Source: Bdellovibrionales bacterium (GTDB lineage: Bacteria > Bdellovibrionota > Bdellovibrionia > Bdellovibrionales > UBA1609). Taken from it: a stretch of 64,000 nucleotides of DNA. Position 1 is the first letter of the stretch, and every line of letters starts with the position of its first letter. Both the position numbers and the translations under genes were made by a program. Positions 5,266-53,653 of the stretch are shown one piece after another. The stretch is taken from the NCBI GenBank assembly GCA_965116175.1, contig OZ220490.1, forward strand, positions 888,570-952,569, read 5' to 3'. The notes under the pieces were generated by a model that was not told the DNA's origin, did not search any database, and saw only the letters and a list, made by a program, of their open reading frames with translations.

Positions 5266-5585
5266 AAAGCTTTCTAAAAGTTTAACAAACAGAAAAGAGG
5301 AAATCCAAATTTATTAGAAAAAACAATTAATCAAGGGATTAAAGTCTAGCTTCATACCTGTTTTTATATAAAAAACTTAAATTTTGATTTAAAGCTTTGT
5401 CTATAAAAATAGCAGTTTCTTTAAGATTTTTATTAAATTTCTTTTACAGGTTTCAAAAGAAGACTAACAATGAATCCTACTCCTGTTAATAATGATATAA
5501 CAGCAGCAACAGTACTTAAAGGCACACTAACTTCCATATACATATAATATCAAACAAAACTCAAGATTTTACTTTATAAATATAG

Positions 5586-5649
5586 TGATCCTGTTTGAAT
5601 TTTGAGGGTTTTATAAAAGTGAAACAAATTAAAATTCAAATCCAATCAG
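5586..5649. repeat. REP-like imperfect palindrome, an 'empty' member of the inverted-repeat family that flanks the hairpin modules at 8.3 kb and 53.4 kb
   Basis: The left half is GTGATCCTGTTTGAATTTTGAGGGTTTTAT. The reverse complement of the right half is CTGATTGGATTTGAATTTTAATTTG. The element lies directly downstream of the purA stop and is followed by CAGTATAAA, as at 53595. Confidence 0.55.
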
Positions 5650-5661
5650 TATAAAACATGA

Positions 5662-6963
5662 CTAAAACAAAGGTTCAAAGCAAAGTGTTTGTGATCGGGA
5701 GGGTCCAACAGAGATGGTATCAATAGGAATATTCAATTCTTTACTAATGAAATTAATGTATTCCAAAGCTGAATGAGGAAGGTCCTCTTTTGATTTTATT
5801 AAGCTTAAATCCTGATTCCAGGAGGCAAAAGACTTATAAACAGGTTGAATTTTTTTTAAGTCTTTCAAATGGGTTGGAAAACCCTCTACAGGTTTCTCAT
5901 TGATTTTATAAGCCACACAAACTTTAATTTTTTTCAAACCGCTTAAAACATCCAGTTTCATTAAAGCCAAACTGCCAGCCCCATTTAAGCGAACAGCATA
6001 TTTAAGGGCTGGTATATCCAGCCAGCCACAGCGTCTCCGCCTGCCAGTCGTGGAGCCAAACTCCCCACCCTTCCTTTGAAGATGGAGTCCTGAGGGTGAA
6101 TCACTGCACTCTGTGGGAAAAGGCCCAGGCCCCACTCTTGTTGTGTAAGCCTTTGCTACAAGGACAGTTTTTACAAAATGATTAAAACCAAGGCCAGAGC
6201 CTGTTAAGGCTCCTCCAGCCAAAGTTGAAGAGCTTGTCACATAAGGGTAAGTGCCATAAAGTCGATCCAACAAGCTGCCCTGGGCTCCTTCAAAAAGAAC
6301 ATTTTTGCCTTGGTTAAGAGAGTTATAAAGATATAAAGGCATGTCCTTGCATCTGTATATCTTTAAAGTATTACGGCATTTTTTAATCTGTTCAAAGCTA
6401 TTCTCTATTGATACAGGGGTTTTATTGTAAAGTTTTGATAAAATTATATTTGTTTCCTGAACCTGATTCTTCAACTTTTCAAGCAAAGAGGAGTCCTTCT
6501 CTTCAAAAAGGTCAGAAAATGTAAGAGCTTTACGGGCTGCCCGACATTCATAAGCAGGGCCTATCCCCCGTCCTGTAGTTCCAATTTTTTCATGTTCTGC
6601 CCGCTCTTCACGAGCTTGATCCAATTGCTTATGGTGATCCAACAATAAAGTTGCAGAATCAGAAATAAGAAGCTGATCACTGTTTTTTAACTTATCTATC
6701 TTTTGAAGCTTTTGAATCTCCTCACAAAGGGCCGAGATATCCAAAGCTACCCCTCCAGTAATGAGACATTTGACTTGAGGATGAAAAACAGCAGAGGGAA
6801 TCAAGTGGACAATCAGTTTTTCACCCTTGACTTCCAAGGTATGACCGGCATTGGCCCCACCCTGATAGCGAACAACCATATCAGCCTGTGAAGAAAAGAA
6901 ATCAATCAATTTCCCTTTTCCTTCATCCCCCCATTGGGCGCCAATTAAAACAACAGCAGGCAT
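5662..6963 (-). CDS. purA: adenylosuccinate synthetase
   Basis: GAQWGDEGKGK P-loop, GTTGRGIGPAY and the overall 433-aa architecture. Confidence 0.95.
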   Translation of the reverse strand: MPAVVLIGAQWGDEGKGKLIDFFSSQADMVVRYQGGANAGHTLEVKGEKLIVHLIPSAVFHPQVKCLITGGVALDISALCEEIQKLQKIDKLKNSDQLLISDSATLLLDHHKQLDQAREERAEHEKIGTTGRGIGPAYECRAARKALTFSDLFEEKDSSLLEKLKNQVQETNIILSKLYNKTPVSIENSFEQIKKCRNTLKIYRCKDMPLYLYNSLNQGKNVLFEGAQGSLLDRLYGTYPYVTSSSTLAGGALTGSGLGFNHFVKTVLVAKAYTTRVGPGPFPTECSDSPSGLHLQRKGGEFGSTTGRRRRCGWLDIPALKYAVRLNGAGSLALMKLDVLSGLKKIKVCVAYKINEKPVEGFPTHLKDLKKIQPVYKSFASWNQDLSLIKSKEDLPHSALEYINFISKELNIPIDTISVGPSRSQTLCFEPLF

Positions 6964-7089: not shown

Positions 7090-8022
7090 ATGAAAAAATT
7101 AAATATGACTGAAAATGTAAAAAAGATTCTCAAAAATTACAGCGGGGATAATCCTGGCACAATTTCCAACCTGGCTAGAATGATGGAGCATGGCTGCTTG
7201 GGAGGAACAGGAAAAATGGTGATTTTTCCTGTAGACCAGGGGTTTGAACATGGACCTGCAGCCAGTTTTGCTTTGAATCCTCCAGCCTATGATCCTTCTT
7301 ATCACTTTCAACTCGCTATAGAAGCTGGCTGTAATGCCTATGCCGCCCCTTTTGGTTTTTTAGATTCCTGCGCCAGAGAATTTGCAGGTCAAATTCCTCT
7401 TATACTGAAAGTTAACAATTCAGACAGCTTATACAAAGATCCAAAAAAACCTCTGCCTGCTATCACTTCAGGTGTAGAGGAGGCTTTAAGACTGGGCTGT
7501 TCTGCCATAGGTTTTACAATTTATCCAGGGAGCGAGGACAGAGTTTCAATGTATGAATCTGTCATTAAACTTGGCAGAGAAGCTAGAAAAGCAGGTTTAG
7601 CCCTTGTCATTTGGTCATACCCCAGAGGAGGAGAACTTTCTAAAAAAGGGGAAACAGCCCTTGATGTTGTAGCCTATGCCGCGCAAATTGCCTGTCAACT
7701 GGGAGCGCATATTGTAAAGGTCAAACCTCCTGAAAGTTTTTTTGAGAAACAGGAAAAAGTTTACCAATCGTCTCAAATTCCCTCTAAACAACTCAATGAA
7801 AGAGTGGCTCATGTGATTCAATCTGCCTTTAATGGAAAACGTATTGTGATTTTCAGTGGAGGGCCTTCAAAAGGGGAAAAAGAGCTTTTAAATGAAATTG
7901 AGCTTTTAGCCAAAGGGGGAGCCTTTGGCAGTATTGTGGGGCGGAATGTATTTCAGCGCCCTAAGTCTTCGGCCTTAAATCTTTTAAAGCAAATTATGGC
8001 TATTTATAAACAGTTTATCTAA
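7090..8022 (+). CDS. fbaB: class I fructose-bisphosphate aldolase, FbaB/DhnA type
   Basis: Collinear with E. coli FbaB as I recall it: GTGKMVIFPVDQGFEHGPAASFA.NP..YDP...LAIEAGCN, IGFTIYPGSE and GAHIVKVK (Schiff-base Lys region). Confidence 0.8.
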   Translation: MKKLNMTENVKKILKNYSGDNPGTISNLARMMEHGCLGGTGKMVIFPVDQGFEHGPAASFALNPPAYDPSYHFQLAIEAGCNAYAAPFGFLDSCAREFAGQIPLILKVNNSDSLYKDPKKPLPAITSGVEEALRLGCSAIGFTIYPGSEDRVSMYESVIKLGREARKAGLALVIWSYPRGGELSKKGETALDVVAYAAQIACQLGAHIVKVKPPESFFEKQEKVYQSSQIPSKQLNERVAHVIQSAFNGKRIVIFSGGPSKGEKELLNEIELLAKGGAFGSIVGRNVFQRPKSSALNLLKQIMAIYKQFI

Positions 8023-8213
8023 TTTTTCTAAAAAAGCAGCTATATATTTAATTTTACTTATTTTTTATAATTATATTTAAGCATTTATGTAGAATCTGTT
8101 TCATAATACAATCTTTGTTTACAAATAGGTTATAAAACAAGTGTAAGGCTTTGCTTCGTAATACTGGAAACAACTTCTAGTATTTGTATTTATGAAATTA
8201 CATATTCAACGGA

Positions 8214-8426
8214 CTGATTCTGTTTGAAATTTGAGGGCTTTTATTGAGCAAAGATCAAACCTCCATTAGAGTAAGAAGGTCAAAAGTGAGTTCGGCTTTG
8301 AACACAAAGCGGCTGAAAGGCGCCTTGTGGCAAAACGTATGTCTGAACTTTTGACCTTCTTACTCTAATGGAGGTAGTGATATGCTTTTTCATTTTTAAA
8401 AGTCTTCAAATTTTAAATAGAATCAA
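8214..8426 (+). repeat. composite palindromic element A: REP-like outer inverted repeats enclosing the 115-nt hairpin module
   Basis: The outer left arm is CTGATTCTGTTTGAAATTTGAGGGCTTTTAT (8214-8243). The reverse complement of the outer right arm is GATTCTATTTAAAATTTGAAGACTTTTAA (about 8396-8426). Confidence 0.6.
8260..8374 (+). ncRNA. candidate structured RNA or hairpin module, copy A (unknown family)
   Basis: A 28-bp perfect Watson-Crick stem (CCTCCATTAGAGTAAGAAGGTCAAAAGT / ACTTTTGACCTTCTTACTCTAATGGAGG) encloses a 59-nt core. The core is shared with copy B: GAGTTCGGCTTTGA, a variable helix capped by CTGAAAG, then GGCAAAACGTATGTCTGAAC. Confidence 0.45.
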
Positions 8427-8511
8427 TATAACATATCATTTATTATAACAACTGGACACTAGACTTGAATATGGATGAAGTTTTGAACAAGATAAAGTAT
8501 AAAAGCAAAAT

Positions 8512-9369: not shown

Positions 9370-10761
9370 ATGAAAATAAAATATATTTTTACCCTTGCTG
9401 TTTGTTTTTTTCTTGCTGCCTGTGTAATTACAACAAAAAATAGGTTTGGACAGAGAGGCTATGCCAGCTCTGGAAAAAAGACTCTCCCACAAAACAGACT
9501 TTTAGAAATGGGGCAGCCTACCTTTGTTCAAAACAAAAATAAGGATCTATCTATACAAAAACACATTCAAAGACAATGGGCCTTAAAAGACATTTCCATA
9601 TTAAAGGCTTTGGAAGTGTTGGACAAAAATAAAAATCATTGCAATTCCACCACAGCCATTAAGCCCTGTATTGTTGCTGTTGTAGACACAGGCATTCATC
9701 CAAGCCATCCCTGTTTAAAAAATAATCTTTGGACAAATAAAGGAGAGATACCAGGCAATAATAAAGATGATGATGGCAATGGATTTATAGATGATATTCA
9801 TGGCTGGAATTTTGTAGACAACAACAACAACATTCAAGATAATCATGGGCATGGCACTCATATTTCAGGAATTATCGCCGCTTCAGGGGAAACCCCTCAA
9901 TCACCAAATTGCAAAGTCCGTGGGGTAGCGCCTCATGTTCAGATCATGACGCTTAAATATTTTTCAGAGGGAAATGATAATGAAAATATTGAAAACACTG
10001 TCAAGGCTATAAAATATGCAGTGGATCATGGCGCAGACATTATCAACTATTCTGGTGGCGGACCAGGGGAAAACTTAAAGGAAAAAAGCGCCATTGCAAA
10101 AGCTGCTGATAAAAATATCATTTTTGTTGCCGCTCTTGGCAATGAGGGATCACAAATTGGAGAGAGTGGTTTCAACAAAAAACCGCAATATTACTACCCT
10201 GCAAGCTATGAACTCCCTAATATCATCTCGGTTCAAGCCAAGAATAAAGACAGTATTATCACATCCAGCAACCGTATAAAAATAGAAAGTTATGAAGACA
10301 GGGATAAAAAAGTGCAAACAGCTCCAGGTTATGAGGTTATATCAACCCTTCCTCCCAGAAAATATCTTCAATCCTATAAAGAAGAGGCAAACTCAAGACA
10401 TATAGCTTCATCAATGGATTGGAACAACAGTTATGGGCGAATGACGGGAACCTCCCAATCCACAGCTTTTGCAACAGGTGTGGCTGCTCTTGTTAAAACC
10501 AATCACCCCTCATGGAATATGGAGCTTGTTATCAATCAAGTGATAAGAACCGGCTTTGGCCAGGGAACGGATAAAATAAAAAAGACCACCAATCAAGGTA
10601 AAAAACTGGATGCCTATAAAGCCTTGACCATGAGGGATCAGAATGTAAACACATTGGTTGATGAGCCCATTTCCAATCCTAATGAACTGGAAAAAGATAC
10701 ACTTTTTGAATCCTTAAAAAACATAACCAACATATTTAAAAAAAAAGGCAAAGAAAAGTAA
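9370..10761 (+). CDS. subtilisin-like serine protease (peptidase S8), lipoprotein
   Basis: Catalytic triad motifs VAVVDTGI (Asp), HGHGTHISGIIAA (His) and GTSQSTAFATGVAAL (Ser). Lipobox FLAAC. Confidence 0.9.
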   Translation: MKIKYIFTLAVCFFLAACVITTKNRFGQRGYASSGKKTLPQNRLLEMGQPTFVQNKNKDLSIQKHIQRQWALKDISILKALEVLDKNKNHCNSTTAIKPCIVAVVDTGIHPSHPCLKNNLWTNKGEIPGNNKDDDGNGFIDDIHGWNFVDNNNNIQDNHGHGTHISGIIAASGETPQSPNCKVRGVAPHVQIMTLKYFSEGNDNENIENTVKAIKYAVDHGADIINYSGGGPGENLKEKSAIAKAADKNIIFVAALGNEGSQIGESGFNKKPQYYYPASYELPNIISVQAKNKDSIITSSNRIKIESYEDRDKKVQTAPGYEVISTLPPRKYLQSYKEEANSRHIASSMDWNNSYGRMTGTSQSTAFATGVAALVKTNHPSWNMELVINQVIRTGFGQGTDKIKKTTNQGKKLDAYKALTMRDQNVNTLVDEPISNPNELEKDTLFESLKNITNIFKKKGKEK

Positions 10762-10768: not shown

Positions 10769-11587
10769 TTAAAGAATACTTCTTGTTCTAAACTTTATTG
10801 TTTTTGAAAAATCTGTTACCATCTCAAAGGCTTCAGATTCATTATTGGTTGGTATTATAAAACGCCCTAACAAAGTCAACTCTACACTGTAATTAGGCAT
10901 TCTTAAACGCGTTGGATCATCTGGATTAATAGCAGGAAAACCAGATAAAAAAATAGTTAAATTTTCAAGAGGATGTCTAGAAAAACTGTCATAATTTACT
11001 TCTGTGTCAGGAGGCACAATATAAAGAAAAGGAGGGCCATCACAATCAGCGCTGGAGACAGTCCCTTGATGTTGAATAGTCCTCCCTCTATAGGAAGCTT
11101 TTGCCCTATATTCCAATGTTTGAATGATCAAATAAACATTTTTTCCCTCTCCCTTATTGCCATTGCCAATATATAGTCCAAATTTCAACCAGCCATTGCC
11201 AACACTTTTCACGACAGGTTTTAACTCCTGATTTGGCTGCTCCTGTTGCTCCGACTCCTCACCAAACAAATAATCAAGAGCTGTTTTATTTAATTTTATA
11301 TGGGTGCTTTCAGACAAATATCTTCGGGCCTCAGAATTTCTAAAAGGATAGGGGCGGCAAATCTGATTCCCTCCTGAATAATGAATAATAGGCCGTCCAT
11401 GAGAGCGGACTACATTCCCACGGCTATAAGTGAGCAAACGGACTTCAATTTCACTTTCTAAAGTGGATCTTAACCCCTGCTTACAAGAGCTTAAAATCAA
11501 AAAGCAAAATCCAAAAAACAAAGCCCGGTTTATACATAAAACAAAAAGACAGCTTCTGCTTTGTCTACAAATTTTATTATATTTCAT
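10769..11587 (-). CDS. lipoprotein, unknown function
   Basis: Lipobox LILSSC. No family recognised. Lies immediately downstream of pilQ on the same strand. Confidence 0.45.
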   Translation of the reverse strand: MKYNKICRQSRSCLFVLCINRALFFGFCFLILSSCKQGLRSTLESEIEVRLLTYSRGNVVRSHGRPIIHYSGGNQICRPYPFRNSEARRYLSESTHIKLNKTALDYLFGEESEQQEQPNQELKPVVKSVGNGWLKFGLYIGNGNKGEGKNVYLIIQTLEYRAKASYRGRTIQHQGTVSSADCDGPPFLYIVPPDTEVNYDSFSRHPLENLTIFLSGFPAINPDDPTRLRMPNYSVELTLLGRFIIPTNNESEAFEMVTDFSKTIKFRTRSIL

Positions 11588-35872: not shown

Positions 35873-36109
35873 CTTTAAAACTTGAGGCATCTAAAATTAA
35901 TGGCCATCCTTTTTATATCCTTTGCTTCTTAAAGCGTCTTCACGACTAAAATAAGCTTGTTTCTCAGCTCCTATATAAACCCCTAATTCATAAATTACTG
36001 TATCACAATTACACTGATATTCTATATAATAGCCATTTTCTATTTCTTCAATAGAACATTTACATATTTCACATCTTATAAAACATTCACAATAAAATAT
36101 CTTCTTTCG

Positions 36110-36415
36110 TTAAGCTAGCTTAACTACATAATTCAAATCATACTGGCGGAGATAATCTTGAACCGCCACTTGTACCCAATAAGGTTCAATCTCACCAAGA
36201 GCTCCCGCTATTTCAGCAGCTTTGGCTGGAGAAGGAATACGACGACCATTTTCATAATCACAAATTATTCCTCGACTTAAACCGCCGATCTTTTTTCCAA
36301 GTTCACTCTGAGTTAACTCTAAAGTTACACGGTAAGTGTGCAAAAGCTTGGCAAAAGTAATAGCACCATAATCTTTTTCCAATTCTTTTGTTCCATATCT
36401 TTTTTTAGTAGTCAT
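36110..36415 (-). CDS. higA: XRE-family HTH antitoxin (HigA-like)
   Basis: LTQSELGKKIGGLSRGIICDYENGRRIPS helix-turn-helix. It overlaps the upstream toxin gene by 11 nt. Confidence 0.8.
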   Translation of the reverse strand: MTTKKRYGTKELEKDYGAITFAKLLHTYRVTLELTQSELGKKIGGLSRGIICDYENGRRIPSPAKAAEIAGALGEIEPYWVQVAVQDYLRQYDLNYVVKLA

Positions 36416-36680
36416 GGGATATAACCTCCTTTACTATTATTACACTGATTTGACCTTCTTTACTAACTGTATAAATTAGCCTCCATTTTTTATTTAAATA
36501 TACAGATCTCTGTCCTTTTCGGTTGCCTTTTAATATATGGTCTCTAAACCCCCTTGCTTTTTGAACAGCTGGTAATCCTTCTTTTTCAACCATATCTGCC
36601 CAAACTTGTATTTTATCACGAATGAAATACGGTACTTTCCTAAGAGACTTTTTTACTGAGGACAAATCAACTGCATACAT
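36405..36680 (-). CDS. higB: RelE/HigB-family type II toxin
   Basis: 91 aa. LKGNRKGQRSVYLNKKWRLIY...VKEVISHDY is typical of RelE/HigB mRNA interferases. The toxin-first gene order matches HigBA. Confidence 0.78.
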   Translation of the reverse strand: MYAVDLSSVKKSLRKVPYFIRDKIQVWADMVEKEGLPAVQKARGFRDHILKGNRKGQRSVYLNKKWRLIYTVSKEGQISVIIVKEVISHDY

Positions 36681-36687
36681 TTAACTA

Positions 36688-36710
36688 TTGTACTCTTATT
36701 TCGAGTACAA
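36688..36710. promoter_or_regulatory. perfect 8-bp inverted repeat, candidate HigA operator
   Basis: TTGTACTC-N7-GAGTACAA begins 8 nt upstream of the higB-like start codon. Confidence 0.4.
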
Positions 36711-36774
36711 ATCAAGAAGAGATTAAAGAATTAAGTCATGCAGTAATTTTTTTGTCGCGGTGACCATTTAGATC

Positions 36775-36927
36775 CTATTTTTTATGTTCTGCTCCCTTTT
36801 TTTCAATATACCCCACCCTAACCATTAATTCGGCAATTAAATGACTGCGGGATAATATGCCATTTTTTAAAATAGACTTTAAATTGTCTCTATGGGTTAT
36901 ATAATAAAAATATCTTGGTATTTGCAT
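36775..36927 (-). pseudogene. orphan duplicate of the DarT N-terminus (about 27 codons) running into unrelated sequence
   Basis: Repeat copy 2 re-encodes MQIPRYFYYITHRDNLKSILKNGILSR. The frame then continues SHLIAELMVRVGYIEKKGAEHKK* outside the repeat. Confidence 0.5.
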
Positions 36928-36950
36928 AAAATAATTAACTCCTTTTAAAG
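36848..36950. repeat. 103-bp direct repeat, copy 2 (includes the stop codon of the cysteine desulfurase gene)
   Basis: Same sequence as 35770..35872. The TAA stop at 36945-36947 lies inside the repeat. Confidence 0.85.
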
Positions 36951-38204
36951 TCTTACAACAGATTCAGTAGACTGATAATTTATAGAGTAAAACTCTTTTA
37001 AAGAGTTTACTAAAAAATCCACTTCCTGTTTTGTGTTTGAAGGGGATAAAGATATACGAATACATGATCTGGCATAATCTTTTGGATTACCCAAATCGTC
37101 AAGATCGGCTATAGCAGTAAGAACATGGGAAGGTTCAAGCGATCCGGCATTACAAGCTGAACCTGCAGAAGCACACATACCTTTTTGGGCAAGATGCAGT
37201 AAAACAGCTTGATTGCTAATACCACCACAATAAATACTAGATGTATTTGACAAACGGTTGGCTTTCCTACAATTAATTTTGAAAGGACCTAGTGGTCCAT
37301 ATATTTTTATTTTTTGAAAATCTTCTGAATTTAGATTTGATAAACTTTCTTTAAATGGATTTAGCAAACTGTCCTCAAAATAATCTCTTAATTGTTTTAC
37401 ATATTCCTGTTTACTTAAATCAATATCCTCCACAGCTAACTTAAAAGATTGAATAGCAGGGTAATTATGGGTTCCCGGTCTTAAACCTCTTTCCTGTCCC
37501 CCACCATACATAAGAGGAGCAAATGGTTTTCTAGCATACAATAAGCCAATTCCTTTCATAGCTCCAATTTTATGGCCAGAAAAGCTTGCAAAATCCACAT
37601 CCCATTTTTCTAAATCAACAGGCACTTTTCCTAAAGATTGAACAGCGTCCACATGAACAAGGCAATGGTATTTTCTAGCAATTTCAATTATATATTGTAT
37701 ATCTGTAATGACTCCTGTTTCATTATTAGCGCTTAAAAACGATATAAGAGAGTGAGGACGCTTTGAGCAGGTTTCTTCTAATTTATCTAAACATAATTCC
37801 CCTTGTTTGGTATGGGATATTAAATGCCAAACTCGGTCGTTTTGTCTGTTATCCAAAATAGGATGGATATTTGAATAGTCCGACAAAAATCCAATCCTTT
37901 TGAGGCTGGCTTGATGCTCTAACATAGAACTGATAACAGCAAGTAATTGATTCAACCTCAAAGTCTCTGGCGATAAAATAGTGTTAATGGATTCTGTCCC
38001 TCCACTTGTAAAAAATAAATGTTTTGGAGAGCAGTTTAAACACTCTGAAATAACTTTGCGGCACTCTTTAATTTTTTGAGCTAATACTTGAGAATGTGAA
38101 TATACAGAAGAAGGATTATGCCAATCCTCTAAAATACCCTTTTCAAGATATTTTCTCACAGACGGAGAGTAAGGGGCTGTAGAATTATAGTCAAAGTAAA
38201 TCAT
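36945..38204 (-). CDS. sspA: cysteine desulfurase (class V aminotransferase; SspA/DndA-like)
   Basis: FTSGGTESIN, HVDAVQSLGKVPVD, SFSGHKIGAMKGIGLLY (PLP Lys) and SAGSACNAGSLEPSHVL (active-site Cys). It is the last gene of the operon, 4 nt after the upstream stop. Confidence 0.75.
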   Translation of the reverse strand: MIYFDYNSTAPYSPSVRKYLEKGILEDWHNPSSVYSHSQVLAQKIKECRKVISECLNCSPKHLFFTSGGTESINTILSPETLRLNQLLAVISSMLEHQASLKRIGFLSDYSNIHPILDNRQNDRVWHLISHTKQGELCLDKLEETCSKRPHSLISFLSANNETGVITDIQYIIEIARKYHCLVHVDAVQSLGKVPVDLEKWDVDFASFSGHKIGAMKGIGLLYARKPFAPLMYGGGQERGLRPGTHNYPAIQSFKLAVEDIDLSKQEYVKQLRDYFEDSLLNPFKESLSNLNSEDFQKIKIYGPLGPFKINCRKANRLSNTSSIYCGGISNQAVLLHLAQKGMCASAGSACNAGSLEPSHVLTAIADLDDLGNPKDYARSCIRISLSPSNTKQEVDFLVNSLKEFYSINYQSTESVVRL

Positions 38205-38207
38205 TCT

Positions 38208-40250
38208 TTACCACTTTTCGTTTAATTTTTTTAAATAACTTTTAATTTTTTCTTCAAATAGCTTAAATCTACTTTCTAAAAACTGTGATTTGATTATTTT
38301 ATCTTCAGTATTAAACTCTTCTTTTCTGTAATTCAGTTGTGTATCAATACATAGTACCTCCATACCGCTTTTTTCTATTTCTTCATCAATAGAATTAGTT
38401 AACCGTTTTTGATTTCTTTCGCTAGGAGAGTAAAATTTATTTAATATACTATGAACTGGACTGTTTTTTTTATCAGGATTTATCCAACTATCTGGAATAA
38501 TATGATCTTTATGTAAATCCTTAAAGTGTTTTATCTTTATGGTTTTTTCTTCGCCATGTTTAAATATATCAATAGCCTTTTTATATGAGTAAGATAATAT
38601 AAACTGTAAAAAATATTCTCCAATATTGTTATTATAACTATAGCCATTATCTTCATAAAAAGCTTTAAATCCCTCTAAGTCTGAATACCCTCTTTTATTA
38701 CACAGGTCATCTTCATATTTCTTAAATTGATTATCCTGTGATTTTTTTATGAATTTGATTAAATGATTTAGATGTTCTATTGAGAAAGCATTTTGCCCTT
38801 TTTCATATTTTCCAGAAAATAAACTCATCCAGTATGAATATTCTATTTTTTCTTTCGCCTCTATTTTTTCTTTATTTTTATATAAATTATAAGCTATGGG
38901 TAAAACTGTTAATTTATATTTTATATCTTTTATAGAAGGAACACCACATTTTTTAATTAGGAATTGAAAAGCTAATATAAGAGATTCTACAGCCTTCTCG
39001 GAACTATCTTCTATTTGTGTAGCCTCTATTTTTAGTAGAGATTTTTGCTTGATACAATCTACTTTAAACTCATTGCCGTCAGATTCTTTTATGAAGAGGG
39101 CTAACATATTCAAATACATATCAGAAAAATTTTTTGTAATTAAGTTTTTACTATCTTTCACAAATTTTTCTTCAATCAATTCTGCTACAGACTCGTCTTC
39201 TTCAGATTCACCTTCTAAATTTCTTATAAATGATTCTGCATAATCAAGAAGTGCTTTAGAAAGCCGCCCCATCTGTAGCTTGGAATACTTTGCGGATACA
39301 ATATCAAATACTCCAAGAGAGATGCCTCCTGTGTTCATTGTATTAAAAGCAACAATAGCTTTATTTAGTTGTGATTTTTCATATTCAACTCCATAAATTT
39401 CTTTGTAAATGATATGATTATTAAAGAATTGTAATATGTTAGTCTTTATTTTGTTGATTGTTTCTGATTTCTTCTCTTTATTTTCTATTATTACTCCATG
39501 ATCTTTTTTTATATTATTAATATGTTTTTGAACAGTACTGTTGTTTTTATTTTTTATAAGAAAATCTATATATTGTTCAGAGATTTTTTCTATTATAGGT
39601 GTTAGGTTTGAAAGATCTGACAAAATAAGAAATAAAGGCAAAAGATTTTCCTCCGTACAATAGTTTTTAATCTTTTCCATTTCTTGAGAAGGATGCCATC
39701 TGTCACCTTCATTTGTTTTCAGAACTTTTTTATTTATTATCACAGATTCAATATCTTCTATGTCGTAATCTTCAAATTTTCCAGTCCAATAAAAATCATA
39801 TAGTAAATTTAGTTTCTGTTGTAAATCGTTATTATTCTCAGCTAAAGATAAGTTTAAAAACCACCTATACCTTAAGTTATTATGTAGAGAATTATTTGTC
39901 TCTTTCCAATTATTATTTATATATAAATTATTAAAAATAGATTTTATAGTAGATATTCTTTGTTGTCCGTCCATAAGTAATTTAGAACGCTCTGGGTTTA
40001 ATCCATTTCTTTGTTCTTTATAACATAATTCACGAAGACCTATATTATCTAATTTATCTAAGACTAATATGCTCCCGATAGGAATATCTAAAAACAGAGA
40101 ACAAGCCAGTTTTGACTGCTGATCTTGAGGCTTCCACACAAAATCTCTTTGAAAGTCCGGTAGCAATAGATTCTCCTCAAGAATTAAATCTCTTATTTTG
40201 TGTCTGTATTCCTTAGCTTTCATATCTCTTCCTATTGTTATAAATCGCAA
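38208..40250 (-). CDS. sspE: DUF262 (ParB-like, DGQQR) + DUF1524 (HNH-like) protein; SspE/GmrSD-type PT-sensing or type IV restriction component
   Basis: The N-terminus has LLPDFQRDFVW...IGSILV...LMDGQQRISTI. The C-terminus has HKDHIIPDSW...NKFYSPSERNQKRLTNS (His-Me finger). Its start overlaps the SspD-like stop by 13 nt. Confidence 0.7.
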   Translation of the reverse strand: MRFITIGRDMKAKEYRHKIRDLILEENLLLPDFQRDFVWKPQDQQSKLACSLFLDIPIGSILVLDKLDNIGLRELCYKEQRNGLNPERSKLLMDGQQRISTIKSIFNNLYINNNWKETNNSLHNNLRYRWFLNLSLAENNNDLQQKLNLLYDFYWTGKFEDYDIEDIESVIINKKVLKTNEGDRWHPSQEMEKIKNYCTEENLLPLFLILSDLSNLTPIIEKISEQYIDFLIKNKNNSTVQKHINNIKKDHGVIIENKEKKSETINKIKTNILQFFNNHIIYKEIYGVEYEKSQLNKAIVAFNTMNTGGISLGVFDIVSAKYSKLQMGRLSKALLDYAESFIRNLEGESEEDESVAELIEEKFVKDSKNLITKNFSDMYLNMLALFIKESDGNEFKVDCIKQKSLLKIEATQIEDSSEKAVESLILAFQFLIKKCGVPSIKDIKYKLTVLPIAYNLYKNKEKIEAKEKIEYSYWMSLFSGKYEKGQNAFSIEHLNHLIKFIKKSQDNQFKKYEDDLCNKRGYSDLEGFKAFYEDNGYSYNNNIGEYFLQFILSYSYKKAIDIFKHGEEKTIKIKHFKDLHKDHIIPDSWINPDKKNSPVHSILNKFYSPSERNQKRLTNSIDEEIEKSGMEVLCIDTQLNYRKEEFNTEDKIIKSQFLESRFKLFEEKIKSYLKKLNEKW

Positions 40251-41056
40251 ATTAGGCAGGCATCTTCTTGGTCGTCATCATTGACTACATCTTTAAAAAC
40301 ATCTGTTATGTTTTTTCCTTTTTGTTTTGATAAGGCTTTTTCCATTCTTTGTTTATAATCTTGTTTTATTTTTTCTCTATTTTTTTCTACATCTTCCAAA
40401 GGCATTCCTTCCACCCAAGTAAAAGCAACATGATCCCCTTTGTAATTTTGTTTTTCATATTGTTTTGCTTTTTCAAACAGTTCTGGGTGTTTTTCCAAAA
40501 GTCCAACCCACTCAATTTTTCTTTGGAAGAAGCAAAAGTAACAACCAGATCGGGCCCGCCAATCATAATATTTTGGTAAGCCAATGCCTGATTCTTCCAG
40601 AATTTTATTAACTCCGTCAAGGTCGATTCCTTCTTCTTTAAAAGGATAGCGGGGCAGTATTGTATTTTTCTGTGAAATATAACCCTGTCGGTGCTCGTCA
40701 GCTCTAATACCAATATAACTTTCTATTAAGTCCTGTCTAATATACCTCTCAAAAGATTTAATTTTCATTTCCATAGTACACCACCTAGCCCTTGGAGAAG
40801 GTAAATAGTCCGAATGCTGTTTTAATAAATAATCAAAGTTTTTCTCACTATTTAAACGAACAATTTTTTTACTTAAAAAAGCTTCTAATTTATCTAGGTA
40901 TTCATAAGTTTCTGGCAATTCACTTCCCGTATCACAAAAAACATATTCTAAGTTAGGTATTTTATCTTTAAGAAAAATAGCCATAGCCGTGGAATCTTTG
41001 CCGCCAGATAGAGGACAGACCTGCCTTCTTTTTTTGTCATATTTAAAGCTAGGCAT
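40238..41056 (-). CDS. sspD: PAPS-reductase-family PP-loop ATP pyrophosphatase (SspD/DndC-like)
   Basis: CPLSGGKDSTAM (SGGxDS PP-loop), a RARWCT motif, SGCYFCFF and a C-terminal CLIC. The preferred start MPSFKYDKK at 41056 forms ATGCCTAG with the upstream stop. The track start is 41125. Confidence 0.78.
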   Translation of the reverse strand: MPSFKYDKKRRQVCPLSGGKDSTAMAIFLKDKIPNLEYVFCDTGSELPETYEYLDKLEAFLSKKIVRLNSEKNFDYLLKQHSDYLPSPRARWCTMEMKIKSFERYIRQDLIESYIGIRADEHRQGYISQKNTILPRYPFKEEGIDLDGVNKILEESGIGLPKYYDWRARSGCYFCFFQRKIEWVGLLEKHPELFEKAKQYEKQNYKGDHVAFTWVEGMPLEDVEKNREKIKQDYKQRMEKALSKQKGKNITDVFKDVVNDDDQEDACLICDL

Positions 41057-44000
41057 TGATTTCCGTATCCCCAACATATACATCCGCAGGTTCTTCTGTT
41101 TGTTCTTTAGAAGTCTTTTCATCAACGGATTTCAAAATGGCCAAAATGACTTTTCTTTTATCTATTTCATCAAAAGAATCCAAAATGAGCTTTATTTTTT
41201 CTATAGAAGAAGAAAGATGTTTATTAGTATCAAAATGAGTTCCTAATTTCACAAAAGTTTTTTTGTTTTTTCCCTTATCAATAAAAGCTAATACAGATTG
41301 TCCTTTAAAATTAGGATTAGCTATCTCACAAGCCAGTTCAATTTCTGTTTTGACTCTTTTTAAAGCAAACTCAAACTTAAAGTATCCTTTTTTATCCCAA
41401 TACCTTGGAGAAGAACCAGTCAATACATCAGCAATTGTTTCTAAAAAATACTGGTTATAATTAGAAGGATCAAAATTTAACACCCGTCCTATAAAGCGAC
41501 TGGTGTTAGAGCTGAATGGATAATCTTTAACTTGTGAAAGAGTATCCTTAAAACTTTCAATAAGTTTATTTTTTGTTATGGGTTTAAGAGTATTATTTAA
41601 GCATTGTTTATCTATAAATTTAATGAAAGTTATGAGATCAGATTTGATTTTTAAGAGCAGGTTTTTATAGACTTCATCAATCTCTTGTTTTATATCATTC
41701 AGTTTAAGTAATATATCTTCTATTTCATTAGTACTAGTTTTAGAATGAATACTTTGTTTATTAAAACAGTCTGATATTCTGTTAAAAAGGAGTTTATCAG
41801 GCTCTTTAGAGGAATCAATTTGAATAAGAAGTTTTCGCCCCCTCTGTGACAATACTGAAGATAGTTTTGTAGATTCCGGGATGCTTTTTCTCCACTTAAT
41901 TAGAGCTTCTATAACTGAACGAATAGATACATCTTTGGCTTTAAAAGTTTCAGCTAAGCCATTTAAAAAATTTTGTTGTTTAGTATTTATTGGAGTGTAA
42001 TGAATAATTGTTTTTTTAGGGTATTTCATCAAAAGATCATAATGATCTCCATCTAAATCCTTAACATAAGCTTCATCAAAATAATGACTGACAGGCTGTT
42101 TGAAACACAAATCAGCTAAAGCAATAAAAACAGGAATCACACCAAGACGAAAGCCATAAGGAGGAGAAACCAGTATATCTAAAAGTGTATTTCCATAAAT
42201 GCCTTGAGGATGTTCAGACAAAATTTGCTCGTATTCTTTAAAAAATTTATAATAAGCTGATAATTTGGAAATTTGGTAAATGTTTATTTCAGAAGAATAC
42301 TTAAATTTAGAAAGCCTGAACATAGTATCAAAAATCACATAGTCTGGCCCATGACCCTCTATACAGCTGATTATATTTTTTATAGGTTTATTTCTGTTTT
42401 GTTTTAAAAGGTTAATAAATTTTTTACGCCCTAAAGTAATGCTTCCCGAAACACTGTGGCGGTTCATATACTCTAAATTAAATTTTATATATTTATTATA
42501 TTCTTTTTCAAAGAGATTGCCTAAATACCTTTGCAGTTCTTTAAAATGAGAAACTTTTTTTAATGACACCTCTTTGCCTTTTATAAAATCAAGCATAGGG
42601 TAAACAACATAAGCTGAAAGATTCATATAGCCAATAAAAGGTTTTAACAGAGAATTTATAGAAAAAAGCAAAATTTCTTTATGGCGATCCAGTTCTTTTT
42701 TTACTAAAGGGCTGGCTAATAAAATTTCCCTGTTATTGTATAAACAATCAACAGCGTTTAGTTCCTCAATATCTTTTCTACACTCTATAAACTGTGTAGG
42801 TAGAATAAAGACAGTGAGTGGAGATGATATTTTTTGAATTTCTGATTTTGCATAAACAAATTCATCATGACTGAAAGGAATTACATAAAAAACACAACCG
42901 TCCTCTCTATAAAAATCAACATTTTGTTGTGTTCTAAGGTTTTTTAACTCCTCAACAGAAATAATTTTTGTTCCGTAAAAACGATTTATAGCATTATCAA
43001 AATTATATTTTTTAGGAATAATAAAATCTGTCTTAAAATATCTTCTTAAAACTTGAACAAGGCTTTTACTGGTTAATGTTGTGTCTTTTAATTTGGAAAT
43101 TTCCTCATCAATATCAATAGGGGCACCTTCCTGCAAAAGATACTGTTTTATATTTTTATTATAAAAAATAATTTTTTTATCTTTTAAAAACTTTAAGGAT
43201 TTTTTAATATCCCCTCTTGAAAATAATTGGTTAAAACAATCTACAATAAAATCTTCTGTTAGAGGCGAAAAATGAGTGTCTTTAACAACAGAGCAAAGGG
43301 CTATAAGGCTTATAATTTGTTTTGAAGCTTCATCTTTTTTTTCAATTTTTTTAAAGGCTTCCTCCGCCATAAGCTGAACCTTATAAGCACCTCCAATGCC
43401 AATATCTTTTCCAATAAGAATTTTAAAATATTGATATAAATTATAAGGCAGCAGCAAAGTGGTTTGATCTTTAAATCTTTCATCTAAAAATCTTTTAAGA
43501 GAGTGATTTTCATTACGGGTTAAAAAAGTGTAAAGGGTTCTTTCATTTTGAGCCACTTTTTTTGATAAATGAGGGAGAAGGGCTAAAACAACAGGATGCA
43601 AAGGAAAGCAGTTAAGTAAAATTGGTTCTATATTTTTTAAATCAATAAAATCTTCAAAAGTGTCTGTTTGCCATTCTGACACATATTTTTTAATGTAGGT
43701 TTTATATTTCTTAGCCATAGAAATTTGACTTTTTAAAATATTTTTTTCAAAAACAGCAGAAATCATTTTGTAATAATCAGCGCTTTTATCGTAAAAAGCG
43801 GATTCTTGAAAACGACCTTCAATTTTTGCCCATTCCTGTTGGACATTGATAGGAAGCTGGCTGGCATATTGAGAAATAGACAAATGAGTGATAAGCATTA
43901 AATGACACTGTTTTTCTCCTGAGCGATTGCAAAACTCCGCAAAGTTTTGTAAAAATTGAATGTTTAAATCTGTTGGATTGTGCACTCCTTTTTCTAAATA

Positions 44001-44585
44001 TTTTCCAAATTCATCATAAATGACAAAGATTCCACCATAGCCTTTTGCTTTTAAACTATTCAAAGAATCCTTGTAAAATTGCAAAGCTTTTTTTGATTGA
44101 CTTTTAGCAGGGATTCCTACTTGTGACAAAGATTCTTTAAGCTTGTTTTTAAAGATTTGTTCAATCTCTCCTTCATACCCATTAATGAATACAGGCAATA
44201 GCTTTGTTTGTCCTGATTTTTGAAATGAGTTAAAACTTGCTTTTAAATTTTTATTTGCTTTATTGATTAAAACATTGATGATTTTAGAATATTTTTTTGC
44301 AATGATTTGAGCCGTTAACAAAGCAAAAGTAGATTTGCCAAGCCCTGGAGAACCGCTTAGGACTCTTACTCTATGTTTTGAGTTTTTTTCTAAAATGGAA
44401 TTAAAAATTTCTTTTAACCCCTCTTGAAATTTAGAGGAAAGATAAATATTTTTTAATCTTGAAATATCTTTATAATCCAGTTCTAAATTTGTAGATCTGT
44501 TATAGCTATCAGATAACTGAATAAGATTTTGTATTGAAAAACTTTTTTTCTTTTTTACTGATTGATTTTTTATATTGTGTTTCAT
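41049..44585 (-). CDS. sspC: large P-loop NTPase (SspC-like; DUF499/BrxC-like ATPase architecture)
   Basis: Walker A is LSGSPGLGKST (near residue 80) and Walker B is GGIFVIYDEFGKY. The long helical remainder (1178 aa) is unrecognised. The call rests mainly on its position between the DUF4007 and PAPS-reductase genes. Confidence 0.6.
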   Translation of the reverse strand: MKHNIKNQSVKKKKSFSIQNLIQLSDSYNRSTNLELDYKDISRLKNIYLSSKFQEGLKEIFNSILEKNSKHRVRVLSGSPGLGKSTFALLTAQIIAKKYSKIINVLINKANKNLKASFNSFQKSGQTKLLPVFINGYEGEIEQIFKNKLKESLSQVGIPAKSQSKKALQFYKDSLNSLKAKGYGGIFVIYDEFGKYLEKGVHNPTDLNIQFLQNFAEFCNRSGEKQCHLMLITHLSISQYASQLPINVQQEWAKIEGRFQESAFYDKSADYYKMISAVFEKNILKSQISMAKKYKTYIKKYVSEWQTDTFEDFIDLKNIEPILLNCFPLHPVVLALLPHLSKKVAQNERTLYTFLTRNENHSLKRFLDERFKDQTTLLLPYNLYQYFKILIGKDIGIGGAYKVQLMAEEAFKKIEKKDEASKQIISLIALCSVVKDTHFSPLTEDFIVDCFNQLFSRGDIKKSLKFLKDKKIIFYNKNIKQYLLQEGAPIDIDEEISKLKDTTLTSKSLVQVLRRYFKTDFIIPKKYNFDNAINRFYGTKIISVEELKNLRTQQNVDFYREDGCVFYVIPFSHDEFVYAKSEIQKISSPLTVFILPTQFIECRKDIEELNAVDCLYNNREILLASPLVKKELDRHKEILLFSINSLLKPFIGYMNLSAYVVYPMLDFIKGKEVSLKKVSHFKELQRYLGNLFEKEYNKYIKFNLEYMNRHSVSGSITLGRKKFINLLKQNRNKPIKNIISCIEGHGPDYVIFDTMFRLSKFKYSSEINIYQISKLSAYYKFFKEYEQILSEHPQGIYGNTLLDILVSPPYGFRLGVIPVFIALADLCFKQPVSHYFDEAYVKDLDGDHYDLLMKYPKKTIIHYTPINTKQQNFLNGLAETFKAKDVSIRSVIEALIKWRKSIPESTKLSSVLSQRGRKLLIQIDSSKEPDKLLFNRISDCFNKQSIHSKTSTNEIEDILLKLNDIKQEIDEVYKNLLLKIKSDLITFIKFIDKQCLNNTLKPITKNKLIESFKDTLSQVKDYPFSSNTSRFIGRVLNFDPSNYNQYFLETIADVLTGSSPRYWDKKGYFKFEFALKRVKTEIELACEIANPNFKGQSVLAFIDKGKNKKTFVKLGTHFDTNKHLSSSIEKIKLILDSFDEIDKRKVILAILKSVDEKTSKEQTEEPADVYVGDTEINA

Positions 44586-44640
44586 TTTGTTTCTCTATTG
44601 AGTTAAATAACAAGCAACATTCATAGTAAAACATAAATGT

Positions 44641-45531
44641 TTAAACAGAATTAGCGTGAACGCCCATCTCTTTATAGTAATTATCTAAAGCTTTTTTCAA
44701 ATAAGCTGAATCAGGCTGGACAATAAAGTATCCTCCTGTTCTTGAATAATTCAGATAATTTATTTTTGAACAATTCTCTATTAGATCGTTCATTTTCTCT
44801 AAAGAAAAATGAAAAATACGGCCCGGAGAGTTTTTCTTAAGCGATAAATCCTCAAGATTAACAGATTCTGGACAACTCAGATGATTTTGCCAGAATAAGA
44901 AAAGAATATAAGCAAAAACATGGATGTTAAAATCATTGATATTTAGTTTGTTTCTAATAAACTTTTCCCCTCTTTTTTCAATCCAGCCATATTTTGTAAA
45001 GGGGGAGGGAGTTTCTGTTTCAGGATTTCTTTTTCCTGCCCATTCCACAGCCTGATACATTCTTAAAAGACAATTTAAGTCTTTGTATAAAGTTGCATCT
45101 TTTATTTTTTTGCCTGTTTTAATTTGAATATAAGCAAAAAAAGCATTTTCAAGAGATTCCTTTTCAAATTCATCAGCAGAAAAATAGTTAAAAAACCAAT
45201 ACCATGTTGTTGCTTCCTCTTTGTTTGTTACAAGCAGGTAATGAATTAAAAAAAGTGTTCCATCTAATTCAAAGTAAGGGTCTTTTTCTAAAATTTTTCT
45301 GGCTGTATCTGTAAGGGTAAAACCTACTGGATGGGATTTGATAAGATTTGCCGCCTTAAGCCAGTATCTTATAGAGTCCACCATATTTTTGCCGACCCCC
45401 ATTTTCTGCATGGCCATTTCAGTATTTTTTTTGTTATTTAAGAGAATCTGAGAGGTTTGATTTGTCCAGTAAATTCCTTTGTAAAGCCATTGATCCCTTA
45501 AATGAAAGCTTTGATGTCCGCCGAATTTCAT
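44641..45531 (-). CDS. sspB: DUF4007 family protein (SspB-like nickase component)
   Basis: The N-terminus FGGHQSFHLRDQWLYKG matches the DUF4007 opening motif as I recall it (F.GHE.F.LR.GWL.K). It is the first gene of the operon. Confidence 0.65.
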   Translation of the reverse strand: MKFGGHQSFHLRDQWLYKGIYWTNQTSQILLNNKKNTEMAMQKMGVGKNMVDSIRYWLKAANLIKSHPVGFTLTDTARKILEKDPYFELDGTLFLIHYLLVTNKEEATTWYWFFNYFSADEFEKESLENAFFAYIQIKTGKKIKDATLYKDLNCLLRMYQAVEWAGKRNPETETPSPFTKYGWIEKRGEKFIRNKLNINDFNIHVFAYILFLFWQNHLSCPESVNLEDLSLKKNSPGRIFHFSLEKMNDLIENCSKINYLNYSRTGGYFIVQPDSAYLKKALDNYYKEMGVHANSV

Positions 45532-45544
45532 TATGCCTCAATCC

Positions 45545-45575
45545 TTTTGGGAAAAGCCTAACCTAATTCCCAAAA
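45545..45575. promoter_or_regulatory. 9-bp perfect inverted repeat in the sspB leader
   Basis: TTTTGGGAA-N13-TTCCCAAAA ends 14 nt upstream of the sspB ATG, directly 5' of the GAGG Shine-Dalgarno on the minus-strand mRNA. Confidence 0.3.
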
Positions 45576-45767
45576 AGAGACAATCTTTATTATTTTCTAA
45601 ATTGCTTAAAATATATGCTTTAGCAAAAAAAACAGGACTCTAGGGCAAGTTTTTTGAAATGAAAATTTCTTAATTTTTAAAGTTTTTGTCCTGATTTTTA
45701 AATCTGTCAAATAACAATCTTACAAAAGTAAATTTCTACTGTAAAATTGACACTTTGTCTTAAATTA

Positions 45768-45895
45768 GGTTCATGACAACTTAAGCCTGATTTTATAGGT
45801 TTTAAGTTTTTGAAATGAATGGGAAAAACAAGTATTTTATCCGCTCCCGCCTTTCTGAGAAGAAATTTAGGGAGATTATCAAGTTACTCTACGAA
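45768..45895 (+). mobile_element. IS1595-family remnant: terminal repeat plus the first about 26 transposase codons
   Basis: GGTTCATGACAACTTAAG is at 45768. MNGKNKYFIRSRLSEKKFREIIKL matches the N-terminus of the 57.8-kb copy (MKNKYFIRSRISEAKFREIIKL), and similarity is then lost. Confidence 0.7.
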
Positions 45896-45911
45896 AATAA
45901 AAAACTTAAAA

Positions 45912-46703
45912 TCACTCCAAAGCTCTTTTCGCTTTCAATTTTGTCATCCCAGGTCTTATTCTATTATCGTATAGGATTTGAATCACTTCTTCATCAATAT
46001 CTGCAAATCTTGTAGGTGAGGATTCTTGGTGAAAAATACTATCAGGATAAGAGTAGGAATCTTTTGCAATTCCTAAAGATTGTGTTATTTCCTCCCTTAA
46101 AACACTTTTCCTTTCTTCCCCTTTCAATTTTTGATCAATAAAAACCATAGCTTTATAAATAACATAATCACTATCTTTAAATGGCATAAATAAACCAACA
46201 GGGACAGGTTTAGGTATAAAACGGTATATTAGGGGAAAATCTCTTTTAATTTTGTCAGGATCAACAAAATAAATTTTTAAATTAGGTCTTGAATCGTTAA
46301 TTTCTATATTTAAACCTGTTAAATCAGAAAGTTCCTCTGCAATTTTTTCAACCTCTCTTTTGTCTTCAGAGTTATACCCTTCATACAATTTGATTCGTAC
46401 ATCCCCTTGCCATTTCTGAACATTAAAGCCTGAGAGCCAACTTAAATACTCTGATCCAAAGGCTATCTCCATAAAATAATCAATAGCTTCATCGGAATAT
46501 CTTTTTCTGGAATGAGATTGGCCTTTTCTTTCATAGTTTTTATAACCTCTATAATAAGGATCTTCATATTCATAATTACAGTCAGGATCTTTAGAATACT
46601 CACAACCTTGAGGGGGAAAATCAGGATAACAGCCATTTATTCCCACAAAACAACAAAGCAAAAAAACGAGTTGGAAAAATCTAATACAAAAAATGTTTTT
46701 CAT
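45912..46703 (-). CDS. lipoprotein, unknown function (possibly DUF2927-like)
   Basis: Lipobox GINGC. LREEITQSLGIAKDS is reminiscent of DUF2927, but this is weak. Confidence 0.4.
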   Translation of the reverse strand: MKNIFCIRFFQLVFLLCCFVGINGCYPDFPPQGCEYSKDPDCNYEYEDPYYRGYKNYERKGQSHSRKRYSDEAIDYFMEIAFGSEYLSWLSGFNVQKWQGDVRIKLYEGYNSEDKREVEKIAEELSDLTGLNIEINDSRPNLKIYFVDPDKIKRDFPLIYRFIPKPVPVGLFMPFKDSDYVIYKAMVFIDQKLKGEERKSVLREEITQSLGIAKDSYSYPDSIFHQESSPTRFADIDEEVIQILYDNRIRPGMTKLKAKRALE

Positions 46704-47051
46704 TTGATTTGTTTTCTTAAGTATTTATATCTCTATAACTCAAACTGTAAACGCAAAGCATGGCTAAGATGTAATCGTCTCAATGAATCCTATTCTTAAG
46801 CTCCAGCTATGATAATTGATTATTATAAGGCCATTAACTAAAAAATCAAGACAAAGGGCTGGTTTGCTTTTCATGGCTTACTGTAAAAAGAGCTATTATC
46901 AGGAATGCTTTTCATTTGCAAAAAACTGTTAAAATGCTAAAAAAGTCTTAACACTTAAAGGAGTTAAATAGTGTCTTAAAAAAATACGGCTTTATGCTGA
47001 CAGTTGTATACAAGACTGATACATTTATCCAATGTCTAAAAAACCTGTGAT

Positions 47052-53348: not shown

Positions 53349-53366
53349 AGCTTATATTTTTCTCTG

Positions 53367-53595
53367 CTGATTTTATTTAGAAATTGAAACCCTTGTATTT
53401 TTTTATGTTTAATTGATAGATAATATCTCTCAAGTCAAAATCGGTTCAAAAGGAGTTCGGCTTTGAGTGCTGAGCGTCTGAAAGCCCGCTCTGCGGCAAA
53501 ACGTATGTCTGAACTTTTGAGCTGATTTTGACTTGAGAGATAAATATTTATCTGTTTAACAAAATATAAAAACCTCAAATTTTTAATAAAATCAG
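53367..53595 (+). repeat. composite palindromic element B: REP-like outer inverted repeats enclosing hairpin module B
   Basis: The outer left arm is CTGATTTTATTTAGAAATTGAAACCC. The reverse complement of the outer right arm is CTGATTTTATTAAAAATTTGAGGTTTTTAT. The element is followed by CAGTATAAA, as at 5649. Confidence 0.6.
53426..53540 (+). ncRNA. candidate structured RNA or hairpin module, copy B (unknown family)
   Basis: A 27-bp stem (TCTCTCAAGTCAAAATCGGTTCAAAAG / CTTTTGAGCTGATTTTGACTTGAGAGA) contains two G:T pairs that are wobble-compatible only on the plus strand. It has the same conserved core and the same 115-nt length as copy A. Confidence 0.45.
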
Positions 53596-53653
53596 TATAA
53601 ACTAAGGTTTAAAACAACTTGTAAAACTATTCATTCACAAGTAAAAACCAGCT

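Follow-up and report, generated by a model that had tools for sequence, protein, structure and literature searches.

Bacterial MITEs derived from the IS630/Tc1-mariner group are exemplified by Nezha of cyanobacteria, and duplication of a TA target is typical of the group as a whole. The Correia repeats of Neisseria (CREE/nemis) begin with TATA, target TA and exist in full-length and internally deleted forms; they carry a central IHF site and, to our knowledge, have no known transposase partner. In the BIMEs (RIP/RIB) of enterobacteria, inverted REPs, which are linked to the RAYT transposase, flank a conserved central motif that binds IHF. Structured RNAs of the kind collected in Rfam offer a different term of comparison, with long helices, many double substitutions and conserved internal-loop sequences; in functional RNAs, G:U pairs are far more frequent than A:C.

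The repeat analyzed here, two copies of which (A and B) lie in a stretch of 64,000 nucleotides (the window), resembles the IS630/Tc1-mariner MITEs in being short, non-coding, multi-copy and intergenic, in its presence or absence at orthologous sites, in having ends compatible with TA target duplication, and in having at its ends the same terminal inverted repeats as an IS630-family IS in a relative (L029). It departs from them in that its long form is a continuous hairpin with 110-bp arms and a strongly conserved asymmetric centre, and in its host, which belongs, as judged from the FbaB and YchF homologues, to an uncultured lineage of Oligoflexia/Bdellovibrionota. With the Correia repeats it has in common the initial TATA, an apparent preference for TA, the coexistence of complete and internally deleted forms, a putative functional site at the centre, and transcripts that would fold as long hairpins. 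The Correia sequence appears to be unrelated, however, its terminal repeats differing after TATA; the centre of the present element has neither the IHF consensus nor a promoter signal above chance, and a plausible transposase partner has been identified for it. Like the BIMEs, the repeat has self-complementary arms around a conserved asymmetric central motif and is intergenic and multi-copy, but it is much longer, its IS630-type terminal inverted repeats stand in place of RAYT-linked REPs, and no REP head of the GTAG type was noticed in the sequences read. Its long helices, numerous double substitutions and conserved internal-loop sequences recall Rfam structured RNAs; unlike those, it has a strand-symmetric spectrum of mismatches, an orientation that is not tied to transcription, and no family match. 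We found no description of this MITE family in the literature, and it was set apart from the described families by recognition rather than by alignment. The element is a new family of a known kind, an ordinary selfish repeat of the MITE type, with a tip that is unusually well conserved and able to flip.

Each window copy was originally predicted to be a 115-nt hairpin module located between co-directional genes, and re-reading of both sequences bore out the coordinates (A, 8260-8374; B, 53426-53540). The surroundings were also as described: a class I FBA gene (fbaB, 7090-8022) precedes A, B is flanked by the pth-ychF pair in synteny with L024 and L026, and both copies are co-directional with their flanking genes. 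(L-numbers denote loci of relatives or metagenome contigs; winA and winB denote window copies A and B.) In the 64 kb there are exactly two occurrences of the 26-mer GGCAAAACGTATGTCTGAACTTTTGA and exactly two of the 14-mer GAGTTCGGCTTTGA, compared with expectations of about 0 and 0.5, respectively, and the folding energies of A and B, -62.6 and -59.6 kcal/mol, correspond to z = -11.2 and -9.0 relative to shuffled sequences. The sequence blocks reported as shared are present in both copies, although the first contains a 1-nt indel (GTGAG in A, GGAG in B) rather than a T/G substitution. The outer stems, said to be unrelated and yet perfectly paired, are indeed unrelated, with only about 6 of the outer 20 positions in common; pairing is complete in A, but in B there are two exceptions to Watson-Crick complementarity, both G:T. 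As for the identical length of the two modules, the coordinates agree with it, but the limit of 115 nt is arbitrary: on both sides, pairing extends outward for another 50-60 nt or so, as far as the terminal repeats.

Each of these two modules is most probably the tip of one copy of a MITE, a non-autonomous fold-back transposon some 220-240 bp long, which moved as a whole (Table 1). The original prediction held that the module was not a plain repeat; it is the centre of a multi-copy element, and both A and B end in terminal inverted repeats of the TATACYGATCNNGTTTGAAATTTCC type. In the copies found in relatives, these repeats are about 30 bp long and read TATAC(T/C)GATCNNGTTTGAAATTTCC ... GGAAATTTCAAACNNGATC(A/G)GTATA. 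From the ends inward, the element consists of the terminal inverted repeats (about 30 bp, TATAC(T/C)GATC..GTTTGAAATTT), fast-evolving mid-arms, an apical stem of 20-28 bp, and an asymmetric centre of 60 nt that corresponds to the core originally recognized. The flanks of the module are conserved in the relatives' copies out to the terminal inverted repeats, a profile of which gives inverted pairs of matches around every long-form copy in these relatives, and each of the complete elements of 237-263 bp folds as one hairpin, at -90 to -130 kcal/mol. In the window, the terminal repeats are degenerate yet still paired in the fold, and because of this degeneracy A and B are probably immobile now. 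Copy A (8210-8430) contains no ORF of 50 aa or more, and copy B none of 110 aa or more. Intact copies all begin with TATAC and finish with GTATA, as expected for TA/TAC...GTA/TA, so that the ends are consistent with target duplication at TA.

Table 1. Coordinates and properties of the elements, their parts and related repeats in the window and in relatives
Feature	Sequence	Coordinates	Strand	Properties
Full element, copy A (probable fold-back MITE)	window	8210-8430	.	221 bp; 115-nt module at centre; single long hairpin, -106 kcal/mol
Copy A, left terminal inverted repeat	window	8210-8243	+	degenerate cggACTGATTCTGTTTGAAATTTGAGGG...; nhmmer match of terminal-repeat profile at 8213-8234; pairs with 8397-8425
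Copy A, right terminal inverted repeat	window	8397-8430	-	...CTTCAAATTTTAAATAGAATCAATATA; pairs with left terminal repeat in fold
Copy A, apical stem, left arm	window	8259-8287	+	29 nt; variable outer 20 nt + P1 TCAAAAGT
Copy A, apical stem, right arm	window	8347-8375	+	100% complementary to 8259-8287
Copy A, conserved core	window	8280-8354	+	75 nt; core profile match E = 1e-23; covariance-model score 123.8 bits
Core A, P1	window	8280-8287 / 8347-8354		helix
Core A, J1	window	8288-8301		asymmetric block GAGTTCGGCTTTGA
Core A, P2	window	8303-8329		variable hairpin
Core A, J2	window	8330-8347		asymmetric block GCAAAACGTATGTCTGAA
Full element, copy B (probable fold-back MITE)	window	53363-53599	.	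237 bp; pth-ychF spacer; long hairpin, -93 kcal/mol
Copy B, left terminal inverted repeat	window	53363-53392	+	degenerate tctgCTGATTTTATTTAGAAATTGAAA; pairs with right end; aligns to L024 terminal repeat
Copy B, right terminal inverted repeat	window	53570-53599	-	...CCTCAAATTTTTAATAAAATCAGTATA; from fold and alignment to L024
Copy B, apical stem, left arm	window	53424-53452	+	29 nt; 93% complementary to 53514-53542
Copy B, apical stem, right arm	window	53514-53542	+	pairs with 53424-53452
Copy B, conserved core	window	53446-53520	+	75 nt; inverted relative to orthologous L024 copy and to commoner arm/core arrangement
Short MITE without core	window	5581-5653	.	73 bp; TATAGTGATCCTGTTTGAATTTTGAGGG...AAAATTCAAATCCAATCAGTATA; paired terminal-repeat profile matches weak (E = 0.059, 2.1)
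Superfamily, 56-74 bp				terminal repeats alone; includes window 5581-5653
Superfamily, 95-103 bp				small GC-rich hairpin module at centre
Superfamily, 154 bp	L029	11811-11964		terminal repeat + stem + core
Superfamily, 237-263 bp				long form, core present
Superfamily, 1135 bp	L029	1526-2660		ends TACTGATCGTGTTTGAGATTTCC / GGAAATTTCAAATACGATCAGTATA; transposase ORF
Second MITE type	L003	9249-9343, 18400-18502		
Second MITE type	L028	24-117, 13234-13328, 15819-15914, 19573-19665		

Inverted pairs of matches to the terminal-repeat profile bound elements of several sizes (Table 1), including one in L029 that contains an ORF of 336 aa. This ORF scores 232 bits against the NCBIfam model of the IS630 family transposase (NF033545, cutoff 100) and also matches the Pfam DDE_3 and HTH domains. 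A TATAC start and a GTATA end are common to the intact elements of the 56-74, 95-103, 154 and 237-263 bp classes. The terminal repeats of the core-bearing MITE are those that flank this transposase gene in L029; no IS630 transposase is present within the 64-kb window. An IS630 transposase of the L029 type may be what moves the MITE in trans, by cut-and-paste into TA, a route suggested by the common terminal sequences. The short MITE of the window was assigned to the family from its TATAG...CAGTATA ends and from reading of the sequence; it stops 8 nt short of the stop codon of a purA-like gene (5662-6963, minus strand). We also observed a second MITE type that has the same terminal repeats, is 93-103 bp long and has a different centre, a GC-rich hairpin such as GGATTCCCGC..GCGGGAATGAC; some copies show nesting or a tandem arrangement (L003 9219-9343, L028 19439-19665).

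The element occurs in multiple copies, lies in intergenic DNA, and occupies a given orthologous site in some relatives but not in others. In roughly 240 kb from relatives and from metagenome contigs, there are 15 complete modules in addition to partial or decayed ones, and near-identical arms and core occur together at unrelated loci in L003, L024 and L026. In the one sequencing run that holds the window (X1), the core region is matched by 62 contig pieces, and contig depth, about 19 in the flanks, climbs to about 2600 over the core; with its 378 Mb of contigs the run must be a metagenome, so this depth is not a per-genome copy number, and an estimate of copy number from it was dropped. A metagenome scan with a gapped pattern returned 19 loci, of which 6 are true copies and the remainder chance matches in coding sequence, and the exact 20-mer GGCAAAACGTATGTCTGAAC gave just two matches in genome contigs, both by chance and both within coding sequences. 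Neither a scan of viral contigs nor a blastn search of plasmid and phage collections produced a match to the element. The spacer between pth and ychF is occupied in the window and in L024 (YchF 82% identical), retains a remnant of only 31 nt, TATACTGATC-ttcaagccaaaaca-CAGTATA, in L026, and is element-free in L028, where pth overlaps ychF, in L029 (70 nt) and in L030 (32 nt). Besides the remnant (9924-10000), L026 has a full copy at 11099-11335, directly after ychF and 1.2 kb away, with a stem near-identical to that of copy B; the pair might have arisen by a hop over this short distance, or by an internal deletion and an independent insertion. The spacer downstream of fbaB measures 489 nt in the window compared with 107 nt, free of the element, in the closest relative, L031, in which FbaB is 91% identical and the downstream gene is the same. 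L031 also lacks 173 nt that adjoin copy A, so this is not a precise empty site, and the loci compared yielded no exact pair of empty and filled sites; the 173 nt form an AT-rich stretch between fbaB and copy A (8037-8209) and show no similarity to anything among the sequences compared. In L013, a contig of higher GC content, the short form (1129-1338) begins within the 3' CCA end of a tRNA-Leu(TAA) gene and consists of an arm of about 24 nt, the core and the matching arm, some 123 bp in total.

The complementarity of the stems was examined using a covariance model that was built on 14 copies and with which 15 were realigned. Across the 28-bp helix (outer stem and P1), 95.7% of the cells are paired and 27 of the 28 pairs have changed on both sides, a level of pairing that was reached by none of 500 shuffles, while slid controls gave 30-50%. 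The hairpin and the compensated changes taken in the original prediction as the signature of a selected RNA or single-stranded DNA structure are thus real and far beyond chance. An arm matches its own partner at 0.91 and the partners of other copies at 0.58. The arms are not random palindromes, nor are they specific to a copy, as the contrast between A and B had suggested; they form two groups that recur elsewhere, an A type (winA, L007, L009, L015, L017, L020a) and a B type (winB, L003a/b, L024a-c, L026a/b, L029). What is not borne out is selection acting on RNA. Among the 417 helix cells of the 15 copies, there are 390 Watson-Crick pairs, 10 transversion mismatches, and G:T and A:C in nearly equal numbers (9 and 8). 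Neither strand is consistently the more stable, for the full element or for the inner hairpin P2, and where the genes on either side are co-directional, 6 copies have the core in sense and 3 in antisense orientation, with no clear bias relative to the flanking genes. Massive covariation combined with equally rare G:T and A:C and with like folding of both strands indicates that the stem complementarity is that of a DNA-level inverted repeat, the arms of which are kept alike, and not the product of strand-specific selection on RNA. The two arms would then be one DNA inverted repeat, in which "compensatory" changes may arise through intra-element recombination or template switching, possibly aided by selection for a hairpin during transposition. 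Near-perfect "compensatory covariation" can thus arise from a DNA inverted repeat inside a transposon, and since such a repeat can mimic it, covariation alone is no evidence of a functional RNA. A symmetric G:T/A:C spectrum and a flipped centre provide simple means of discriminating a DNA repeat from an RNA.

Evidence for flipping comes from the pth-ychF site, where the cores of the window and L024 elements are 85% identical once one of them is reverse-complemented and 59% as they stand. The right arm, by contrast, is 80% identical in the same orientation versus 65% when flipped, and the right mid-arm 82% versus 54%; the left arm (64% versus 66%) is uninformative on orientation, and a profile of left-type arms matches the same side and strand at both loci. 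That the centre was inverted in situ rests on the right arm and the left-arm profile matches. By the latter, 6 of 8 B-type copies have the commoner arrangement of arm and core and 2 (winB and L026a) the flipped one. Flips are claimed for B-type copies alone, as the mid-arms of the A-type copies winA and L020a are too short and too palindromic to reveal arm orientation. Recombination between the 28-bp arms would invert the centre, which would account for the opposite core orientations at the orthologous locus. Inversion is also reported for Correia MITEs, in a review (PMC10969869, after Elbeyioglu 2017). In run X1, a contig over window positions 8160-8480, at a genome-like depth of 17.9, links A-like sequence at 8271 with position 8351 of the opposite strand, and is probably a paralogous A-type copy with its core in the other orientation.

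Within the core, J1 and J2 hardly vary among 14-15 copies. The asymmetric blocks GAGTTCGGCTTTGA and GGCAAAACG(C/T)ATGTCTGAA are near-invariant even in L013, next to the tRNA-Leu gene of a higher-GC host, and in the window copies they are intact while the terminal repeats have decayed. In the orthologous pair, J1 and J2 are identical at 31 of 33 positions compared with 118 of 167 in the arms (Fisher p = 0.004). Cut-and-paste transposition requires terminal repeats only, which implies that another constraint acts on the centre, and the blocks GAGTTCGGCTTTGA and GGCAAAACGYATGTCTGAA appear to be under purifying selection. By analogy with Correia and BIME repeats, which carry an IHF site in the middle, the centre may be a site for a protein, either the transposase or a DNA-bending protein of the host, that helps the element; this is the weakest step of the proposed mechanism. 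The IHF consensus WATCAANNNNTTR matches the window 13 times and never inside A or B, and promoter and terminator scans of the element gave no signal above shuffles. One could go further and regard the 60-nt centre, GAGTTCGGCTTTGA ... GGCAAAACGYATGTCTGAA, as itself the functional module, kept in old immobile copies, across hosts and in either orientation; it might act as an enhancer of transposition or as an internal site bound by the transposase, or it might be a protein-binding or RNA element recruited by the host and spread by the MITE, a proposal that we consider rather unlikely. The idea that the core is an internal copy of the terminal repeat was set aside: the 3' block of the core and the inner part of the terminal repeat share a weak likeness of only 11 nt (GTCTGAAATTT versus GTTTGAAATTT), with p of about 0.005-0.03 before correction for multiple tests, which is a lead only. 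The core copy at L003 1860-1956 has a GC-rich hairpin of about 20 nt (CCCCCGCTTTTGCGGGG) inside a conserved block, between GAGTTCGG and CTTTGA, that looks like a small insertion within the core.

If the 115-nt module were an RNA under selection for its structure (cis-regulatory, targeted by RNase III or encoded as a small RNA), with the transposon only as its vehicle, the very strong covariation and very stable folds would be natural, as would core blocks that are better conserved than the arms in the orthologous pair and persist across hosts differing in GC, such as that of L013. It would likewise fit that both window copies are co-directional with the flanking genes and that the two stem mismatches of copy B are G:U on the plus strand, and transcripts of Neisseria MITEs are known RNase III substrates (PMC10969869). 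Against this stand the equal rarity of G:T and A:C in the stems, the lack of a consistently better-folding strand, the occurrence of the core in both orientations between co-directional genes, its inversion at the orthologous site, promoter and terminator signals that do not exceed those of shuffles, and the absence of the region from RNA runs. Rfam, in keeping with the original failure to recognize a family, yields no match at gathering score in the 64 kb and, with the threshold relaxed to E <= 10 on copy A, only spurious hits to miRNA hairpins and snoRNAs. The mismatch comparison is weaker against RNA than it seems, because frequent flipping of the core would erase strand-specific wobble; taken together, these data make a structured RNA improbable.

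The other alternative raised originally, that a mobile core of 75 nt with its own 7-bp ends, TCAAAAG/CTTTTGA, enters palindromes already in place, at their loops or centres (here including the palindromes of older MITEs), is right in that a mobile element is involved, but the mobile unit is the whole element of 220-240 bp. It would explain how one core comes to lie within arms of at least two subfamilies, between which no alignment is possible, and in backbones both long and short (154 bp in L029, about 123 bp in L013), and core-less elements with the same terminal repeats are common. However, the proposed termini are replaced by compensated variants, with pairing kept (TCGGGATT/AATCCCGG in L003b, TAAAAATT/AATTTTTA in L029, GCAAAAG/CTTTTGT in L007), the core is not flanked by a target duplication, and arms and core recur jointly at different loci. 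Empty sites, with the outer palindrome and no core, were sought; the loci examined include no intact arms-only element, and only internal-deletion derivatives were seen (the L026 spacer, L017 752-852, L003 18219-18290). The short form in L029 is also a deletion derivative and not a separate host palindrome, since its arms are homologous to the B-type arms, and we regard independent movement of the core as very improbable. A programmed DNA switch, in which a recombinase acting on the stem arms inverts the core and so regulates neighbouring genes, would accommodate the opposite core orientation at the orthologous locus, the flipped state of 2 of 8 B-type copies, and the X1 contig joining A-like sequence on opposite strands. 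The invertible segment is merely about 60 nt, however, with a promoter-like signal not above chance; there is no adjacent recombinase gene, the copies are scattered over many unrelated loci, and passive recombination between perfect 28-bp inverted repeats suffices for inversion, which leaves a switch extremely improbable.

With A and B read as tips of a fold-back MITE, the window and its relatives reveal a previously undescribed MITE superfamily together with its likely IS630-type parent in uncultured Oligoflexia/Bdellovibrionota genomes, and this superfamily helps to account for assembly breaks in intergenic DNA. That an asymmetric tip outlasts the terminal repeats in decaying copies would, if it reflects an enhancer or a site recruited by the host, be of interest to transposon biologists. 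Two further observations concern the surrounding sequences. A combination of genes that is unusual for a bacterium with a small genome occupies positions 15031-20407 of L025; the products are a DarT-Macro fusion, ankyrin-repeat proteins and a topoisomerase VI-like A/B pair. In the window, the region 36000-48000 has a GC content of 0.30-0.32, compared with about 0.35-0.38 elsewhere, and contains large minus-strand ORFs, one of 1178 aa (41049-44585); the region may have been acquired horizontally or may encode surface proteins.
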